Assembly: GCF_030028105.1 (NCBI RefSeq)
Contig: NC_092399.1
Location: forward strand, 15,830,881 to 15,894,880
Direction of reading: 5' to 3'
Source of the DNA: Mobula birostris
Taxonomy: Eukaryota
DNA length: 64,000 nucleotides
Shown: piece by piece, positions 3,291 to 60,409 of the stretch
How the letters are laid out: each line of letters begins with the position of its first letter
Position numbering within the stretch: position 1 is the first letter of the stretch
Program-made: the position numbers and the translations under genes
Notes under the pieces: model-generated
Told to the model about the DNA's origin: nothing
Seen by the model: the letters and a program-made list of their open reading frames with translations, nothing else
The model's database searches: none

Positions 3291-4538
3291 ATACAGAAAG
3301 AAATAGGTAATTCTGGGTTTTAACGATTTTATGATATTACAATTGAGTTTTGAGGGATGTCCGTTAAACAGAATTAGACATTGTAACCCTAAGCTCTGAC
3401 CTCTTGGTGTATTCATTGGGAACTGTGTTGCAGCAGAACAGTTATAACCACTGAAATGGTTCAACGTCTAATTCTTGGCACAATTTATTTTTGTGTCTGT
3501 TATTTTATAGGAAGTTTATTTTTTTTGAAGGTTTCTTCTTGGCTTAAAAGCAATCTGTGACGTCATAAAAAAGAGCCTTGAACCAATTATTTTTTTGGGA
3601 AAAAAATTAGTCTATCAGAACAGAACCTGAAACAATAGCCTAGTTGAGCTTCCTGAGTACTGCTAATGAATAGTATTCAAAATTTAGACCTTCATTTGCT
3701 AAACAGTATTCAGCTATTGTTAATGCCTGATATTTTCTATCAGCTTTTAATGTGAAACTGGGGTAAAGAGTTAATGGAACCCAATAGCAACTTAAAAAAA
3801 AACAATGCAGCTTTTCTTTATGATGGCAATTCATTGCCTGAAAGCATTTTTTATGCAAGATGTGTATTTATGAATGAAAATATTACTATTTAAAATAGTG
3901 GTGCTACCTAATGTTATGAGTCACTTTGTTTTTGTCAGCAATGCATACTGCGGCTACATGATAACAATCAGTTTTTTAAAAAAATCGGTTTGCTCAAATA
4001 TTTGATGCAATTTAAATCTTTTATCTGGAGTTACAGGAGTTGATTTATTTTACTCTTACCTAAAGTGCAGGTCAAGCACTTTAAAATGAAAGTTTCTCTG
4101 GTGCTAATTGGGCCTTTGTGGGTCTCTTGACCTGAATTATAACTTAAACGTTGCAGTTTCCTTCAGAGTGTTTAGGTTTTATTTAGCTTCTAGTAAGTAG
4201 TTAGTGAACTGTCACTCTAATGCAGGAGCTGTATAGAAAGCTGAAGTGGAATGCTCTCTTTTATAATGGTTTAAGTGCATTTTTGCGGCTAGATAAATAA
4301 ACTTTGTTTACCTCCTGGTTATTTGATATCTAAGGGCTTTTCCACCATTGGTAAATTATTCTGGGGGAAAAAAAAGGAGAGCTTGGTCTGTGATTTATTG
4401 TTGACACCAAGGGCCAAGTGGGTAATTCTTTCTGTTGCTGCTTTATTGTGGAACCCACTGTTTATTTTTGAAAGCTCTTGACTTTTGTTTCTTCTACAGG
4501 TAAAGAAATACCTTTTGACAAAGTCCTGCTCATGAAAG

Positions 4539-5472
4539 ATGGAGATCACATCGTATTATACTAAACTTCTGGGAGAATTAAATGAGCAGCGTAAGCAGGA
4601 CTTCTTCTGTGACTGCAGCATAATTGTGGAGGGAAGAATTTTCAAAGCTCACCGGAACATTCTATTTGCTAACAGCGGCTACTTCAGGGCCTTGTTAATT
4701 CACTATATCCACGATAGTGGACGCCCTAGCACAGCCTCGTTGGACATTGTCACATCTGAGGCCTTTTCAATTATTCTGGACTTCCTTTATTCTGGAAAGT
4801 TGAACCTTTGCAGTAAAAATGTTATTGAAGTAATGTCGGCTGCTAGTTATCTACAGATGACGGATGTGGTCAGCTTTTGCAAGTTGTATATTAGATCTTC
4901 TCTTGACATCTGTGTGAAAGATGAAAAGGATGATGATTGCAGTCATGTGGAGAATGGAAATAATATAAATGCCTTTGGAGATGCCGTGTCCTTCTGTCGG
5001 AATCAATGTCCAAACCCTGTTCCGACAGTTCAACAACAGAAAGAGGCAAGCCCGGAGAATAATAAAGGACTTAACTGGAATGAATGCAGTACTTATCATC
5101 CCATAGATCTTGCACAAAAGGATCAAGATAATCTTTCTCCAGAGAAAGTGCATCCTCCATCGCTACCCAAGCTTCCAGAACCGAAGGTTGAATTCGACGA
5201 GGATGAAGTGGGATCGGTTGAGCGGTTCCGACAGTTTACACCGTCTGCCACAGATCAGACTGAGGAGCGGCTGCAGTCTGCCCCAGCCATGGAGATAGCT
5301 TATGAGAATTACCAGATGAAACAATTCCTGGAAGTTTTATTGAGGACAGGAAATGTCCAACGGAAAGATGACATCATGCAGCACTTTTCCCGTGGGGGGC
5401 GTCCGGAGGATGGAGGGGGCACCTTCTCGAATATGATGGATGTCCAGAGCGATTGGTATGGGGAAGATGCAG
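4539..5472 (+). CDS. ZBTB8B: ZBTB8B first coding exon (BTB/POZ domain plus linker)
   Basis: [52 protein letters not shown] is a ZBTB8B-type BTB domain. Acceptor ttcttctacAG at 4498-4499; donor AG|GTGAGA after 5472 (phase 1). Confidence 0.95.
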
Positions 5473-6200
5473 GTGAGATCACTGCAACAGCATAACATAA
5501 CGCAGAACTTTCGTTAGAAACATTGCATCCTTTGATGCAATGCATAACTATCTTAGACAAATACTAAGATTCAGATTGGAAATTCTCCACAAAAAATCTG
5601 GGAGTAATTGACTATTTCGATAGCACCTACACCTTAGTGAAACTAATGTAATACTAAGATAAATGCTGGTATATTTCAAAACATCAGCCATGTTAGTTTT
5701 GGATTGTATAAGTGGCACCAGTTTTTCTTTGTGTGACAATCCACATATTCAAATTCAGGGTCTCGGCCTGCAACATTGATTGTTTCTTCCTCTCCATAGA
5801 TGCTGCCTAATCTGTTGAGTTCCTCCAGCATTCTGTGTTCGTAGCATAGGTTTTGCGTCACAATTTAAATTCCTCAGTGTCATCAAGGTTACTCTCTTGT
5901 GATGGTGTATGAGAGTGTCTGGTGCTTTGGGCGAATCAGTATTTCCCCACAAAATGTTATCTGGGCACCAGCCCACAAATTGAATACATTCTCAGCATTT
6001 CCCCAAATCAACAAGTGACAGCGTGACTACGATGGATGGAGAGTGGGTGGAGTTTTTTTCTGTTCTGCCAGAAGCAGTAATAGATTGTGCTGCCCCTTAA
6101 GTCTATCAGGCCATTCATTAAAATTATGGCTGGGTTTGTACCTCATCCACTTTGCCTCTATCCTTAATGTCTGAAGATCTATTGAATTTGGTTTTGACTA

Positions 6201-39949: not shown

Positions 39950-41200
39950 TGGGTCCGCAGACGATGCTGGCTGATATTCCAAGAAAATGTTTTTTAAAAA
40001 ACCCGGGCAGTTGTAAAATACAGGTAAAAGCGCGATGAAAAAAATGCGCTTTGGTGGTTTGTTCTACTTCAGTTGTAAGTGCCTCCGGGTGTAAATCCGG
40101 GCGTTAAGAGCACGTCCGGGTCGAACCGGGTGGAGACCGACATTTATCCTGGGTAAGGGGGACTCGGGGTTTTATTTTTTGCTGAAATTGACTGTGACCG
40201 GCAAGGCTCCCTGGATGGCGGGATGAGCAGCGAACTCATTGAGGGCTGATAGGAAGGGAGACCGGGTGGCCGGGCGGATATCGCACTGGCGGTGCTGCCG
40301 CCCGCGTACGGTGCAAGCGACCCCCACCACCACGCACTGGGAAGGAGACGGGCACTTCTGTCAAACGGGCTTGGTCTGGTTCTTCGCCGCATCTTCGTCC
40401 TCCCGCTGCCTGCCTGCCTGCTCTCTTCCTCACCGTCCCCGTGGCTGCGCCCGGGCGTGCCCAGGTCCTGCGCTCGGGTGATTATTTACCCTCGCAGGGT
40501 GGATTAAATCCGGCCGTTCTCTCTTGCTACCCCCTCCCCCCCTTTTTATTTGACTAGCCGACCATTTGAACCGCGTGGAGAAATCGTGCGGAGTCTGGAG
40601 TCGCACAGGACAAAACACGTCTGCCTGTCCAAGTCTGCCATGCTCTGCTCGAGTTGCGATCGCGCTGCGTATCGAGGGTGTAATGTTTGGATATCAAATA
40701 AAAATCCTCTATCTCTCCACGTTACGGGCATCATTTGGAGTAAATAATGAGTAAATATCAAGGGAAATGTGGAGGCTGTTTCTTTAGCTAAGTACTCGCC
40801 CTACATTTTCCAGCCAAGATCAAAAGTTGCGGTTGGTAACTTGCAACCCATTGAAGTTGTCTCTAACCAGCCACTGTCTTTCTGCCCGTCACCCGTGCCC
40901 TGCTAGGCCAACAACAGCCTGCACTTTGTGTAGCAGCGTTCGCTCCGCTGAATGAACCAAGTGTGGTTCGCAGACCAGAGAACACCAAATCGCGTAAAAT
41001 GGTTTGATAAATTGAAAGTTTAAAAAAATATAACTGCGGATGTTGGAAACGGGCAATCCTGGACTTAGCGAGGCTGGCAGTGCCTGCTGAGGAAAATGTG
41101 ATTTCAAACTGTTTCTCTTTTGACGTGGCCTGTTTGAGTGTTTCCGTCATTTTTTTGTTTTTGTTTTGCGAATGCGTTGATTTGGCCAAAAAAAAGGTAA
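39950..41200 (+). promoter_or_regulatory. CpG island, probable ZBTB8A promoter and non-coding exon(s)
   Basis: High GC and CpG density 0.8-2 kb upstream of the ZBTB8A coding exon; candidate donors near 40153 (GG|GTAAGG) and 41197 (AG|GTAAGT). Confidence 0.65.
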
Positions 41201-41978
41201 GTTTTAAGTGGCAGAAAGTTGGCATTAACAGCAACCGGATGGTGAGGTTTTCAGAGAGAGCGTGTTCAAGACTGGTTAAGGTATGGTCACTCATGGAAAA
41301 GCAAAGAACAGTTCAAGTTTATTATCATAGGGAAAATGCTGTTTTAACGTACTCTTTTAAAGTTCCAAGTAATTTTTATTATTAAAGTACATGTATGTCA
41401 CCAAATACACCCCTGAAATTCATTTTCTTTGGACAGACACAGCCTCTTGAGCTTGCTGAGTCAGGAATTAAAATGGTCTGATTTGAACTTTGACCTTGGC
41501 TGTTTTCCCACCTAACACCACTCATCCCCAGTCTTAAATATTGCAATTCACCTCTTATTTATCTAAATTTGGGCTCATTTGTTCAATCTACAGCTACAAT
41601 CCCCCTCCCTCCACCTATAAACTTACAAATGTTTGGTCTTCAAATGAATGTTCAATTTCCATTTGAAACCTCTGTGAAATCTGATTTTGGGCAATGGTAT
41701 TCAGATTGTACTGTAGGGGTTGGAGTGAGTATGATCTCATTTGCACTTTGGTTGTTTTGATTTATATTTTATTAAATATATATCTTAAATTTGGATGGTC
41801 ATCCTGCATTAGTTGATTTTAAACTGAAAAAAACACACACACAAAGACCTTTTAATTGCTACTTTGACTTGTTTGAGATGAATTGATATATATTTGACGG
41901 GGATTATCCTCTGCTCTAAGCAAATTAATATTCTTCATGTCCTTTTCAGACTGATGTAACCCCCAGGCAGCTCTCAAG

Positions 41979-42882
41979 ATGGAGATCTCCTCACACCAAG
42001 CCCGTTTATTCCAACAGCTAAACGAACAGCGTAAGCAGGAAATGTTCTGTGACTGCAGCATCATTGTGGAGGGCAGAGTCTTTAAAGGTCACCGTAACAT
42101 CCTGTTTGCCAGCAGTGGCTACTTCCGTATGCTGCTGCTTCATAACGCCCAGGATGTGGGGCAGCCTGCCGTAGCCACATTCGACGTCTTCTCTGCAGAT
42201 GCATTTACAATTATTTTGGATTTCATCTACTCGGGGCGACTGTCCCTCACGAGCCAAAATGTGATTGATGTGATGTCAGCTGCCAGCTTCTTGCAAATGA
42301 CAGATGTAATTAATGTCTGCAAGAGCTTCATCAAATCATCCCTGGACATAAGTGAAAAAGAGAGATACTTAAGACATTCCAGTAATAGTGAAATTAAATG
42401 TGGGGAAGCACCTTCCTTGTACTCAGGCAGCCGTGGTGTAGAGATTAATGCTGGTCACGCTCAGAAGAACTCTGATTTGGGAGGTACTGTCGGACATTCC
42501 TGGAGAAATTTCAACTTTCATCAGGCAGTTTCAAACCTTCCCTGCCCCAGAGACCAATTGCCGATGTCTTTTGCCAATGACCAAGCGCCTCAGGAAGTTG
42601 CTGTTTACAAAGGCAACAGCTTGTGCAGTTTGGGTGCAAGAACGTCTGAACACATAAACACAGAACCCCAGGATCATGAGAAGAGAATAGCGGGTTCTGA
42701 GCCAATTGGTCCACTCGTGAATTATCATTTCAGGCATCAGGCAGATGCGCTGTCTCTGCCACAAAGGAACGCTGACACAGTGCAGCAACCTTCTCAAGGG
42801 AGAGATCGAAAGGCAGAAGATTGGTATCCTCCAGTGCCTACAATTGTGGAAGTTGTAGGTGACTGGAATGGAGAGAACACAG
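41979..42882 (+). CDS. ZBTB8A: ZBTB8A first coding exon (BTB/POZ domain plus linker)
   Basis: [53 protein letters not shown] is a ZBTB8A-type N-terminus. Acceptor ccttttcAG at 41948-41949; donor AG|GTAAGC (phase 1). Confidence 0.93.
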
Positions 42883-43013
42883 GTAAGCTTTCTTTAATGC
42901 CAAAGGTGCAGGCAAACCATTGAGATTTAGTGTCTGGGTATCTCATCATCTTACTGTAAATCTTTTAATTTGTTGCTTTACTAACCTGAGGCATTAAAAC
43001 AGTTCAAATGCAT

Positions 43014-44800: not shown

Positions 44801-45350
44801 CTGATAAATTAAGAGGGAAGTTGTGTACTCTGATCTAATGTTAACATCCATTGATTTAATGGCAACTTATGACAAAAAAAATCTAAAACTATAAAAGTTC
44901 CGCCTTTCCTCAACCTTGATCTTCCTGCCATTGTGTGTCAGTCACAGTTGTGTTTCTATATACATTGCATATAGAAACATTCTGACTTACCACAAGTGTG
45001 GGTGAACTTGCATTACTAATGAGTCTTGATTTTGTTTGTTGGTGCTGTTTGCTTGCACTATAATATGGCTTTGTGTTAATCTTACTAAATTCATCATTTT
45101 ATTGTCCTTCGCAACATTGCTGACTTGTTTTATTAGCTCTGCAATTATCAAGAGCAATGACCTAGATGAAAGATCTTGACCCAAAATGTCGACGGTCCAT
45201 TTCCCTCCGCAGATGCTGCCTGACCCACTGAGTTCCTCCAGCAATTTACTTTTTAATCAAGGGCAATAAGTTCTATTTCAGTTAGTAACAGTATTGTGCC
45301 TTTCCATTTTTGTTCCATTCATGTCTTTGTGTTGTTTGGACTTTTTCCAG

Positions 45351-45680
45351 ATCCATGTGTCCAGAAAGGCTATTTGCAAAGTTTGCAGGAAATCACTTAC
45401 CGGCATTGCAGCCAAAATTGTACAATATGATGGCAGGTCATTTGGGTTGTGCAATAGCTGTACAAATCCAATGAATTCGGGTCACGATGATGAACCTATC
45501 GACTTGGATGCACACGCAGACAATGATACGGAATTTCAGGAAATTAACAAAGAATCTAGCTGGATTTCTGCAGAAACTCAGGGCGACACAGAAGTCCTGA
45601 GTTCAGGAGGAGAAGATCCAGGCAGCAACAAAGTTAATGTAGTAGAAGAAATTCTGGATGATTCAGATGAGCAAGTGTAA
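45351..45680 (+). CDS. ZBTB8A: ZBTB8A last coding exon
   Basis: Acceptor ctttttccAG; IHVSRKAICKVCRK...GLCNSC...PIDLDA followed by an acidic tail DDSDEQV*. Confidence 0.9.
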   Translation: MHVSRKAICKVCRKSLTGIAAKIVQYDGRSFGLCNSCTNPMNSGHDDEPIDLDAHADNDTEFQEINKESSWISAETQGDTEVLSSGGEDPGSNKVNVVEEILDDSDEQV

Positions 45681-55640: not shown

Positions 55641-57399
55641 GTCATCCAGAACCAGTCTTCAGGAATTAAAACCTGTACACAATTTAACTTCCAACTGATG
55701 CTTTGTGGCTAGTGAAACCACTCTTTATGTAGGACATTCTTTGCGCCATTGAAACTACATAGGGAAACACAATTGATGATGTTTTATGCTGTTAGAACAT
55801 TATTAAAGCTGTATCCCTGCTAGCTAATACATAGTTCAGGACTGGTTTGTTTTGCTACTCAACCTTCTGGTTCGTCTTGCTTTTGTTTCAAGGAGACTTT
55901 GAATGCATTCTTATTTTTTTTTTTGAATTGTTGCCTGGTAATCTCTTCTCCCACAGAATTTAGGATAATTTGTTTCTTTTGGTGATGAAGTTTTTGAGGA
56001 TATTGGGGGTGCAGGGGTTAATGACCTTCAAGGACTTTGTACTCTTTCGGCATAAGTTGCATCCTTTTTCGCTTCGCGTGCTTGATTGTATTTCTGCAGT
56101 TGTGAGGTTGTGAAATCGCTAAACTACTTCTCTGTTTTAATCAAGGACAAAACTGTCTGATTCTGTAAAGTAACAGATGTGTGTGTGTCTGATTTAAAAA
56201 CTCCAAGGCTGATTACTCCTTTCTCTGCCCCTCTGTACCTTGTAGTCCCACAAGCTTTGTACAAAGAACCGGAAAACAATTCCATATATGGATAATGATG
56301 GTCTCTTTAAACTGTACAAATGTTGCTGTATGTAACCTGCTGATAGAGGTTCGACACGAGCCCCCAGAGGGAGAGGAAATCTGTCCCTCTGTTGTGTGTG
56401 CCTCTGAACTTCTCGCCGGCTGAGTTCAAAGAAATGAACTGGTGAAAAGGATAAAGTAAAGAACTGTTTGTGTTGTGGTTATTGGTCCGGCAAATTTAAG
56501 TTTACATTGGGAACCAGGTAGAAGGCATGCAGTGGACTGAAATGGCTATCATTAGGGTCTTAATACTGGGGAAGCAACTGCGATAGCTCTAAAAATTATG
56601 TACATATACTGAAGTTGCCTTGCAAAAATAGATGAGAATATTTCAAAACATAAATGATTTGAAAAGATTATTGTGATATTTCAGCTTAAAATTTCCCAGC
56701 CTTTGGCACACTTTGTAATGCTTAGAAATTTATTTAAAAATTGCTGATTTCTTGTCTGCGAGAATTCTTTAAATTCATTATGCATAGTATCATTAAGACT
56801 GAAGAACTCTTGAAATGACATCAATTAGTATTTGCAATGATCTTTTGTTATATTTTCTTTTCTCTATGCTAGGAAGAAAGCATCGTCATTGCTTGCAAAT
56901 TCTTGCACAGAGCTCATTTTGCAGAAGCCACCAATGAGGAATTTTGAAATTGGTGAAACTGGCATGACATATCATTTTGGGTTTTGAGTCCTGATGAAGG
57001 TTTTCGGCCCAAAACGTCAACTGTTTATTCGTCTTCATCGGTGCTGCCTGACCTGCTGAGCTCCTCCAGCCTTGTGTGCGCACTTGGGTGATTTAGTTTG
57101 GATTCAAGATTGTTTAATGTTATTTCCAGTACACAAGTGTGAAGGAGAATGACATAACTGCTACTCCGATTCTATGCAGCACAAAAAAACACATGAAATT
57201 GAACACAATAATAAAATACTATATATATGATAGCTTATATACAATGCACATATACATAGATTGCTTGATTGTATGTCCATAAAGTGATGTTGCCAAGGAA
57301 TGTCTGTATGTAAGGTGACTTACTGGAAGTACAGGAAAAGTGGTGGTTGAGGGTGTGGAAGAGTGAGTTAGTGCGCGCAGGTGTTGATCATCTTTACTA

Positions 57400-57467
57400 T
57401 TTGGCGAAAGTAACCAGTGACGTAACAGCGCTTCCACTTCCTGCTTTATTTGGTAAGGGTGAAGAGC
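57400..57467 (+). promoter_or_regulatory. FUCA1 proximal promoter / 5'UTR
   Basis: CRE/ATF-like TGACGTAA (57418-57425) and ETS-like ACTTCCTG (57436-57443) just upstream of the ATG, in CpG-rich sequence that extends into intron 1. Confidence 0.5.
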
Positions 57468-57823
57468 ATGGAGTGGAAGTGTTTCTTGAGTTTTATTTTC
57501 CTTACTGTGGGTTTAGGTACCGGAGAACCTTCCGTTCGCCGTTACCAACCGAATTGGAAGAGCCTTGACAGCAGGCCTTTACCCGGCTGGTACGACGAGA
57601 GCAAATTTGGGATTTTCATCCACTGGGGAGTATTTTCTGTGCCTAGTTTCGGGAGCGAATGGTTCTGGTGGAATTGGAAAGGGAGGCACTTACGTGAGTA
57701 TGCGGAGTTTATGACAAAGAACTACCCACCGGGATTCGAATACAGCGAGTTCGCTCCAGAATTTACAGCTAGCTTCTTTAATCCAGATCAATGGGCGGAA
57801 CTGTTCGAGGAATCCGGAGCTAG
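57468..57823 (+). CDS. FUCA1: Tissue alpha-L-fucosidase (GH29) exon 1
   Basis: Signal-peptide-like [19 protein letters not shown], then [44 protein letters not shown]; donor AG|GTACAG (phase 2). Confidence 0.93.
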
Positions 57824-58146
57824 GTACAGTAAAAATACGGTCAAACGTGAGCATTCATTGAGTGATTGAGGTGTTTATTTGCAAAAGGCAGATATTCAAA
57901 GTACTTTTTATCATCAAACTATGTATACATTATACAGCCGTGCGATTCGTCTCCTTACAGGCATCTACAAAACAGGAAACCCTTAAAAACCGACAAACAC
58001 CCCATGCGCAGAGAGAAAAAAGCCATAATAACGGAGTTATCAATATAAAGGCGACTTTGCTGCGCTTGAATCTGCTGGTGGAGTTTGGCGGGTGTAATTT
58101 ATTTCATTTGGCCCGGGAATACGGTCATTGCTGTTTTGCATTATAA

Positions 58147-58412
58147 AACCACATGAAATCCAGGTCACATGATGCACAATCGCGTGACAACCCCTTCGGG
58201 CGGGGCGACACCGGGGAGACTGCAGATGCCGAATGTGAAATCACATGACATCCAGGTTACGCGATGCATAACCACGTGACAACCCCCTTCGGGCTGGGCG
58301 ACTGCGGATGCTGAATATGAAATCACCTGACATCCAGATCACGTGATGCACAAAATCACATGACAACCCCTTCGGGCCGGGCGGCTCCGGGGAGAGTGCA
58401 GATGCTGTAAAT
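58147..58412 (+). repeat. Three-copy tandem repeat (about 82-93 bp unit) rich in E-boxes, FUCA1 intron 1
   Basis: Unit aaatCACATGAcatccaggtCACRTGAtgcacaa-CACRTGACaaccccttcggg...ctgcagatgc starts at about 58147, 58238 and 58320. Confidence 0.9.
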
Positions 58413-59976
58413 CTGGATTAGTGTACACGGAGCGATGCGTTGAACCAAAGTCGGCCCTGCAGACGCGCTCCTCCACCCCCAGGACTTTGTCGGACTTGAC
58501 ACCGACTGTTCGCGGCACCAGTTCCCTCTCCAAAAGACAGAAAGGGGGCGGCGCCGTCCCCTTTCCACGGGACTTGGGCCTCACGGCAGGTCCAAGTTAG
58601 ACCCTGTTGTGTTGTGTAACAGCGACCTATTAGATGGCGCATATATCATGACTCGACGCTTCATGCTCTGAAGGTGCCTTTATTTCACATTCTCCTTTCC
58701 ATGCTCCTTGATATCTCCTGTTGTTCTGTCCCAGACTGATGACAACATCACCGTAGCTGACTAGTGTCAAACTTACCATTTAACTACATGACAGAACCCA
58801 ACCTCTGATGCTGTCTGTGGATTCTGAGGTTCTCCCTATGATCCAAAGATGTGCAGATTAGTACATCTACAACTTAAAATGCGCTACTACTAGTGTTTCA
58901 GTGGGTGGTGGGATCTGGGTGAGTTAAGACAAGAATTTGGGGATAAAAGGGATGATTGTAGATGCCTGCTTAATGGCTGATTCAGTCTGCTTTGAAGGAT
59001 CTGATTTGGTGTTGTGTGACAGTATATTATAAATGACATCCAAGGTGGAACTTGAGTGAGTTCCGTGGGTGATTAGTAGACAATATTTATTGGTGGTGGA
59101 TGGGGCAGTACTCCCAGAGGATTCTTGGTTATGTGGCATTATTGCCATCTGAACCCAAAGATAAGGCTACATTTGTCTCTTCATAATCTTGGTATTTTAT
59201 ACATTATGAAGTCTATCATTAATGTTGCATCTTGATGGATAAAGTTTCCATTTAATTAATGTACTTAAACACTTTCCTCACTCCAAAGATAATTTGCAGT
59301 GGATTGTAGATAAATAGATTGCAGTGCTTCAGATATGATGATTGGCACTTACTGGTGAGGACTGGCTATGATGAGATTCTGCCTTTCATACCACTCTTTG
59401 TAAGACAAGCTGAGTAACTCGTAATCCAATATGGTAGCTTATTTATCTTAGTTTTATTGTTTCCAGATTTGTTCTGCTATTTCTGAATTCTACTTGTCCA
59501 TCCCTAAATACGAGTGAGAGGGAGATCTTTACAGGGTTTATAAATCAAACATCTCAGTTTAATTTATAGACACAGGAGACTGTGCAGAAGCATGAAGGCA
59601 CACACTCGGCGGTTCAGGAACAGCTTCTTCCCCTCTGCCATCCGATTTCTGAATGGACATTGAACCCATGAATATTGCCTCGCTTTTTAAAAGCAACGCA
59701 TACAAAATGCTGGAGGAACTCTCTAGGTCGGGAGTCTCGGTCTGAAATGTCGACTGCTCGTAGATGCTGCCTGACCAGCTGAGTTCCATCAGCATTTTGT
59801 GTATGTTATTCTAATTGACAGAACTCTTTTAAAATGCCAAGAACACAACTTGAGTTGTAGGCATTGGTCTGTGTTTTTTTTTCCTGAAATAAAGCTGATG
59901 CTTGGATATATTCAAAGAGCACTTTACAGTTGCATTTGATTGTAGTTAACTGTTTTCCTGTGGTATGTAATCTCAG

Positions 59977-60111
59977 GTACGTGGTGCTGACGTCAAAGCA
60001 CCATGAAGGATTCACGAACTGGGGATCTCCTGTGTCTTGGAACTGGAACTCGATTGAAACAGGTCCACATCGCGATCTTGTGGGTGATCTGGCAGCTGCA
60101 GTCCGTAAACG
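59977..60111 (+). CDS. FUCA1: FUCA1 exon 2
   Basis: 135 nt; [49 protein letters not shown] and GPHRDLVG are FUCA1-like rather than FUCA2-like. Confidence 0.93.
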
Positions 60112-60409
60112 GTCTGTTGTTAATTTTATGCATTTGCGAAATTCCTGATGGCTTTATTGTTCCCTTGGCGTTTGGCCTGTTGACATCATTCTGTGGTCAA
60201 TGGCTGTCCATCTCAAAAATGCCTTAAATATCCTTCTGTATTTCAGTGCTCCTGACACAGTTTTGATGTATTTTTGTGAATATGTTGTTGTCTTGGTGTG
60301 GTCCAGTTTGGCTGTATTGTCTCCTGTGCATTTGGCCAAGTATCCCATATTACCCTGCAGCCATGTTACCTGTCTTGCTTGTACACATTACCTATTGAGT
60401 TACAGCCAA

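Follow-up and report, generated by a model that had tools for sequence, protein, structure and literature searches.

A nested tandem array of E-boxes in intron 1 of a ray FUCA1 gene as a candidate CLEAR/M-box cluster

CLEAR/M-box elements of lysosomal genes are built on TCACGTGA and TCATGTG cores with T/A flanks, and occur in several copies near the start of lysosomal hydrolase genes. The T/A flanks favor MITF over MYC, and CATGTG is described as a MiT site (PMC6672050, PMC9363479); vertebrate CLEAR elements prefer a position approximately 200 bp upstream of the start (PMC8175148). Insect V-ATPase genes carry several CLEAR-type (dCLEAR) motifs in early introns; Vha16-1 has two in its first intron and six in its second, and the motifs show strong conservation of both sequence and position across 23 Drosophila species (PMC10452791). 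The TSER of TYMS is a true VNTR of functionally tested 28-bp units, which are near-identical, lie in the 5' UTR and hold one USF1 E-box each; a SNP within the unit removes a site, so that site number differs between alleles (PMC7712088). In homotypic clusters that arise by local duplication, neighboring sites have a common origin and then diverge by point mutation (PMC3188502; PMC8559717). E boxes, Sp1 sites and direct repeats are also found together in the 5' UTR promoters of CR1 LINEs (PMC2734521).

The tandem E-box array described here, which lies in the first intron of a ray orthologue of FUCA1, resembles each of these systems in part. It has the cores, flanks, multiple copies and gene neighborhood of the lysosomal elements, but differs from them in lacking a perfect GTCACGTGAC, in lying 0.7–0.9 kb 3' of the ATG, and in its nested duplication; its binding is predicted. 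It shares with the insect genes the presence of several motifs in an early intron, whereas the ray sites appear to erode almost neutrally within units that are still recognizable. Like the TSER it is a tandem repeat near a gene start, with bHLH-ZIP E-boxes in its units and a single-letter change that removes a site; unlike the TSER it has diverged units with three slots in each, and no change in copy number was observed. By analogy, the TYMS repeat would be the closest model for allelic site number. Compared with other homotypic clusters, the array is distinguished by two nested rounds of duplication (16 bp and approximately 90 bp) that can still be read, and compared with CR1 promoters, by its single copy and the lack of an ORF1 downstream. 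The kind of element is well known and the host gene is a housekeeping hydrolase; the array is a candidate regulatory element. No published description of this element was found in a literature search that mostly excluded subscription papers, and the main text of the bioRxiv manta genome preprint contains no occurrence of fucosidase, FUCA1 or lysosom*.

We analyzed a 64-kb stretch of DNA, referred to below as the window, and first consider the gene in which the array lies (Table 1). The product of exon 1, a GH29 alpha-L-fucosidase N-terminus, matched PF01120 (E 4e-40) as well as human tissue fucosidase 7PLS (E 3e-43), and was 100% identical over 120 amino acids to the Mobula birostris "tissue alpha-L-fucosidase-like" protein, with other rays and sharks next. 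A tree was made from 24 of 120 listed proteins, picked by name and without tetrapod FUCA2 among them. Six chondrichthyan rows formed a 100/100 clade among the vertebrate "tissue" rows, and a 100/100 branch split off the teleost "plasma" rows together with the invertebrates. Because the chondrichthyan rows cluster with the vertebrate "tissue" rows, apart from the "plasma" rows, the host gene is on this phylogenetic evidence FUCA1 rather than FUCA2. The earlier note on this DNA, which had been made from the letters alone, named the same lysosomal hydrolase, and the Pfam, structure, protein and tree results uphold it. Its placement of the array in intron 1 was likewise confirmed, by the GT..AG borders and by a contig of run X5, taken as RNA by guess, that joins exon 1 to exon 2. 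The distance of approximately 0.7–0.95 kb from the start codon was measured as 0.68–0.94 kb downstream of the ATG, and the CpG-rich surroundings were borne out by a CpG o/e of 0.88 in the array, compared with 0.15 in the downstream intron and with the island and window values in Table 1. Since it lies within the CpG island of the gene, the array region is presumably unmethylated in the germ line.

Other features were observed around the gene. Upstream of the FUCA1 ATG, in the nearest 100 bp (57372–57445), there are three motifs, which we take to be NRF1-like, CRE-like and ETS-like. The single-copy tail of the island contains a perfectly abutting 13+13 bp inverted repeat (58540–58565; 92% complementary) with its GC box inside. 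Upstream of FUCA1 and on the same strand are two BTB-domain ORFs (4536–5495; 41955–42923 plus 45270–45680), which presumably resemble ZBTB8B and ZBTB8A, the second being preceded by a CpG island at 40001–41000.

Table 1. Positions of the E-box array, its host gene and the neighboring repeats in the window
Feature	Positions	Strand	Content or evidence
CpG island-like stretch (promoter, exon 1 and array)	57300..58650	.	CpG o/e 0.90, GC 0.49; window o/e 0.33
First coding exon, tissue alpha-L-fucosidase (FUCA1 orthologue)	57468..57823	+	Pfam, structure match, protein match, tree
Intron 1 (GT..AG), with the array inside	57824..59976	+	Sequence; spliced contig of run X5, loose end maps to 59981
Very high-copy dispersed repeat fragment, upstream of the array and not part of it	57904..58047	.	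Summed contig depth ~38,000–189,000 at 57904–57975 in 3 DNA runs; positive control
Unit 1	58138..58229	+	Slots CCACATGA 58149 (M-box on - strand), TCACATGA 58165, TCGCGTGA 58180 (broken in the window); GC box 58198
Unit 2 (11 bp shorter)	58230..58311	+	Slots TCACATGA 58241, TTACGCGA 58257 (broken), CCACGTGA 58272
Unit 3	58312..58405	+	Slots TCACCTGA 58323 (not MiT-type), TCACGTGA 58339, TCACATGA 58356; GC box 58379
Single-copy CpG-rich tail of the island	58406..58620	.	GC box 58546; sequence, contig depth
Moderate-copy dispersed repeat fragment, downstream of the array and not part of it	58628..58773	.	Summed depth 459–4851; positive control
Exon 2 of FUCA1 (3' end approximate)	59977..60112	+	tblastn

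The array consists of three head-to-tail units (92, 82 and 94 bp) spanning 58138–58405 (268 bp). Pairwise identities by alignment were 64/81, 77/92 and 68/81 (79–84%), and with a period of 82 and a score of 231 the array had the top score of the 33 TRF rows in the window. Three units with three E-box slots each had already been recognized by eye, and all nine motifs then listed were found where they had been placed. Every unit is made up of three sub-repeats of approximately 16 bp, each with an E-box core, followed by a C-run/GC-box segment. The GC-box-like segment ascribed to each unit proved to be an exact GGGCGG in two of the three (units 1 and 3). Judged from this organization, the array is a nested local duplication, in which the ~16-bp sub-repeats arose first and the ~90-bp units second; the origin by local tandem amplification proposed earlier is thus borne out by both the unit alignment and the sub-repeats. 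The slots are 15–17 bp apart, a spacing that is not fixed, with gaps of 9–11 bp between hexamers, and the non-core part of the units includes a nearly invariant 17-bp block.

Unit 3 retains information on the earlier round of duplication. Its first and third sub-repeats differ at one of eight flank letters, whereas the middle sub-repeat differs from each neighbor at five of eight flank letters but at only one of eight core letters. The ancestral unit would accordingly have held at least two sites, which either originated independently 16 bp apart or are old copies in which the core alone was retained. The chance of an independent second site within 30 bp is approximately 0.2–0.4%, a post hoc figure. 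Retention of the core in the middle sub-repeat is the best sequence argument, likewise post hoc, that the ancestral unit may have been functional.

The slots were then compared with published binding rules. CANNTG is kept in seven of the nine slots, a recount that agrees with the earlier one, and the TCA..TGA flanks that had been attributed to most slots are both present in five of nine; TCACRTGA is exact in four. We scored as MiT/TFE-compatible a CACGTG with T/A flank, or a TCATGTG on either strand (core with 5' T and/or 3' A). By these rules six of the nine slots are compatible in the window, and seven with the second-haplotype letter at 58182, which sustains the original assignment to a CLEAR/M-box-like class; of the remaining three, two are broken and one is CACCTG (58323). 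The asymmetric CATGTG type accounts for four of the six compatible slots in the window. The exact CLEAR 10-mer GTCACGTGAC is absent from the 64-kb window, its best match there being 8/10, compared with 9/10 in a related species (organism B) and on the second haplotype.

These sites are concentrated in the array. All four TCACRTGA 8-mers of the window fall within 200 bp of the array. TCAYRTGA occurs four times in the array where 0.055 is expected, and none of 20000 dinucleotide shuffles reached four, a figure that is inflated because it ignores that the units are mutual copies. Across the window as a whole there is no excess of TCAYRTGA (6 found and 5.9 expected), the two outside the array being TCATATGA. 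CAYRTG is absent from the remaining 1232 bp of the CpG island, and a single M-box-like site lies just upstream of the island at 57190. Among the CpG-rich 500-bp bins of the window, four of five have no MiT-compatible site, compared with six in the array bin. All of these chance figures are post hoc, the cluster having been chosen by eye out of a large scan. The array may well be a promoter-proximal CLEAR/M-box cluster with redundant sites, for which TFEB/TFE3 would compete with USF; this reading is supported by the lysosomal hydrolase gene in which the array lies and by the fact that such sites are concentrated nowhere else in that gene's CpG island.

Contig depth in four public runs, at a likeness threshold of 80%, served as a stand-in for a genome-wide search of array copies; the DNA runs were X9 and X10 (one sample, both read whole) and X4 (84% read), the last of which may be the source sample. 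Across 58048–58623 the depth was that of one contig (5.1–5.4 in X9, 7.3–7.6 in X10, and 73.7–79.6 in X4, the last up to 58340). The array is a single-copy locus and not a dispersed repeat, because depth was single-copy in all three DNA runs while the two flanking repeats piled up (Table 1). Copies of the downstream repeat with 17–27 differences per 120–146 letters were picked up, so the test would have revealed a family with many members that is as old as the array; a handful of copies less than 80% alike would escape it. The common dispersed repeat that would have spoken against the earlier note was thus looked for by contig depth and not found. Searching the window with a unit profile returned the three units and nothing further, and the unit pattern had no match in metagenome contigs.

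These results bear on the idea that the array is a relic of 5' UTR promoter repeats from an extinct CR1/L2-type LINE inserted in the intron. Vertebrate CR1 5' UTRs do feature E boxes, USF/Sp1 sites and direct repeats (PMC2734521), and the array is flanked by two dispersed repeats. The end of unit 3 (58389–58411) also agrees at 16 of 17 letters with the head of a dispersed element that occurs in seven or more copies in the window; with E 0.33 this likeness is not significant and no contig pile-up was seen there, although the element head is a possible origin of the unit junction. Set against this are the single-copy depth of 58048–58623 in all three DNA runs at a likeness at which neighbor-repeat copies 82–85% alike were detected, the restriction of the unit profile to the three units in the window, the absence of an ORF following the array, and the lack of a match in Rfam or metagenome contigs. 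We consider a LINE relic highly improbable. Separately, the upstream repeat (57904–58047) departs from its family majority toward G/C and CpG (57937, 57940, 57943), as expected in unmethylated or GC-biased DNA.

Several other readings of the array were rejected. Its folding was not that of a structured RNA (z -0.32, with 70 of 200 shuffles folding as well, and a repeated CUUCGG on a stem of just 2 bp), and Rfam gave no match in the 64-kb window. Human FUCA1 intron 1 contains an active p53 enhancer (PMC4968591); in the ray promoter and intron 1 the best match to a p53 response element (two RRRCWWGYYY half-sites) has six mismatches and lies outside the array. No cryptic GTRAG donor occurs in 58048–58623. 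The triple-E-box pattern occurred at six loci in viral contigs, all of them short 13–15-bp tandem repeats with unrelated spacers and without relation to the array. One of the IMG/VR viral contigs (L001:285–360) has a 15-bp tandem repeat whose unit includes the exact GTCACGTGAC 10-mer, and is unrelated to the ray array.

We also examined the age of the array and its variation between and within species. In organism B the whole 2151-bp stretch is found in one contig with three units and no joint, and differs from organism A, the source of the window, by 54 letters and 9 gap letters (2.5%). Between-unit distances of 0.16–0.22 (Jukes-Cantor) are 6.5–8.9 times the A–B distance, the latter, in which exon 1 is counted, being a rough yardstick. 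The triplication is old and looks frozen, because the units are far more diverged than A from B and because B also has three. The earlier suggestion of a minisatellite whose copy number could tune FUCA1 expression is not supported by these data, since the units are 15–19% diverged pairwise, B also has three units, and no joint that skips a unit was found in any of the four runs (three samples, possibly two animals; the second-haplotype contigs break inside the array, at 58340 in X4 and at 58305/58310 in X5). The note had suggested comparing unit number across individuals and species; no change was seen in these three samples from possibly two animals. Although the units are head-to-tail and within the 10–100 bp of a VNTR, they are not the near-identical units that can slip or cross over unequally, the longest exact run shared between them being 12–17 bp.

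The variation that was observed consists of point changes at single sites, not of unit number. The second haplotype, seen in X4 and in one of the pair of X5 contigs that cover unit 1, has G, C and A at 58145, 58157 and 58182, respectively, and organism B has these three letters plus G at 58169. The window's letters at these four positions are derived, because the alternative letters match the majority state of the units. Position 58182 decides the third slot of unit 1: organism B and the second haplotype have the palindrome TCACGTGA here, and the slot is broken in the window; in organism B the second and third slots of unit 1 are both palindromic, each matching the CLEAR 10-mer at nine of ten letters. 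The broken allele is real and present in the living animal(s), because the other X5 contig is identical to the window and all sampled words are present in runs X1–X3. The two X5 contigs over unit 1 had depths of 7.2 and 5.8; since DNA may be present and contigs do not report expression level, these depths give no evidence on allelic expression. Between the two haplotypes of organism A there are at least ten differences in ~1.2 kb of the intron (58081, 58145, 58157, 58182, 58389, 58422, 58433, a 5-bp gap at 58605, 59187 and 59192). Of the four haplotype differences in a 941-bp X4 contig, three lie close together in a 38-bp part of unit 1, and several second-haplotype letters are common to organism B. 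Three of six A–B indel events fall inside the 268-bp array (p 0.03–0.05), shifting slot spacing by one base; substitutions in organism B were compared up to 58182, and its units 2 and 3 for indels only.

Constraint on the sites was assessed from the units themselves. Among the three units, 8 of 24 columns in the 8-mer cores are variable compared with 13 of 57 elsewhere (Fisher p 0.41, the trend being opposite to constraint), and with other unit-1 alleles the counts become 7/24 and 11/57 or 6/24 and 11/57. When nine intact slots were left to decay neutrally in simulations, at the rate of the non-core columns, 5.7–6.3 compatible slots remained, and 6–7 are observed. The units thus carry no apparent sign of selection on the nine sites since amplification, which would fit redundancy as well as lack of function, and individual sites seem to erode at about the neutral rate. 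The power of this test is low, with three units and 81 columns and a non-core part that may itself be constrained.

These results raise the alternative that the array is a neutral by-product, in which part of the unmethylated island, possibly containing a single bound E-box, underwent two duplications through mutational bias and then drifted, adding nothing to FUCA1 regulation today. Core columns as variable as others, a survivor count at the neutral expectation, a segregating haplotype that breaks a site, and frequent indels in the array are all consistent with such a history, and short insertions at germline-bound sites are reported often to duplicate and cluster the motif (PMC8559717). The alternative accounts less well for cores that were kept while the flanks of the middle sub-repeat diverged, and for the fact that the island of this lysosomal gene has no other accumulation of such sites. 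CpG retention also points to an unmethylated region, and the low-powered constraint test sets the cores against a part of the unit with its nearly invariant 17-bp block. On balance, we regard a neutral by-product as somewhat unlikely.

E-boxes of this type have several potential readers. BHLHE40/41, CLOCK:BMAL1, SREBP and MLX complexes also share the motif, and tandem E-boxes are spaced by 5 bp in the ChoRE and by 6–7 bp in clock elements. A functional cluster might therefore be read mainly by a bHLH factor other than MiT/TFE: by constitutive USF1/2, keeping the island active, by BHLHE40/41 repressors, or by one of the other complexes. The hexamer gaps of the array match neither the ChoRE nor the clock spacing, and the host gene is lysosomal. 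The USF2 motif is GTCACGTG, and USF2 occupies CLEAR motifs, competing with TFEB for a motif common to both (PMC11436898); the TYMS repeats act through USF1 (PMC7712088). In opposition to such a reader, the asymmetric CATGTG that makes up four of the six compatible slots is assigned to MiT/TFE "unlike other bHLH-zip" (PMC9363479). A main reader other than MiT/TFE is in our judgment improbable.

The CLEAR/M-box cluster that we favor would have formed and would act as follows. The ancestral unit would already have carried two or three functional sites, and its amplification would have made the sites redundant, leaving individual sites now free to erode by point change. Under starvation or lysosomal stress, nuclear TFEB/TFE3 (MITF) would occupy the cluster and FUCA1 transcription would rise; otherwise the cluster would be occupied by USF-type competitors such as USF2. 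Any allelic tuning would operate through the count of intact sites, as in TYMS 3RG/3RC, rather than through unit number. Against this reading, one haplotype of the living animal(s) has lost a perfect site, and the core columns are without extra constraint. The array is also not at the usual CLEAR position, being downstream of the ATG, from which (rather than from a mapped start site) its distance was taken, and still in the CpG island. The passage of one source that treats fucosidases as TFEB targets names FUCA2, not FUCA1 (PMC12427801).

A stronger proposal, which we consider rather improbable, is that in rays nested duplication produced a nine-slot CLEAR battery in intron 1, which took over the lysosomal-stress input of FUCA1 from the usual upstream CLEAR site, and that starvation-induced fucosidase expression differs measurably between the alleles owing to the haplotype without one perfect site. 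If this were true, ray haplotypes would offer a natural series in which the dose of TFEB sites can be read, and the naturally occurring six- and seven-site haplotypes make the question of site dose testable. If the array is functional, it would be an unusually legible case of the birth of a homotypic cluster, by 16-bp and then 90-bp duplication, and of its erosion under redundancy, and would provide the first pointer we have found to CLEAR-type control of a cartilaginous fish gene.
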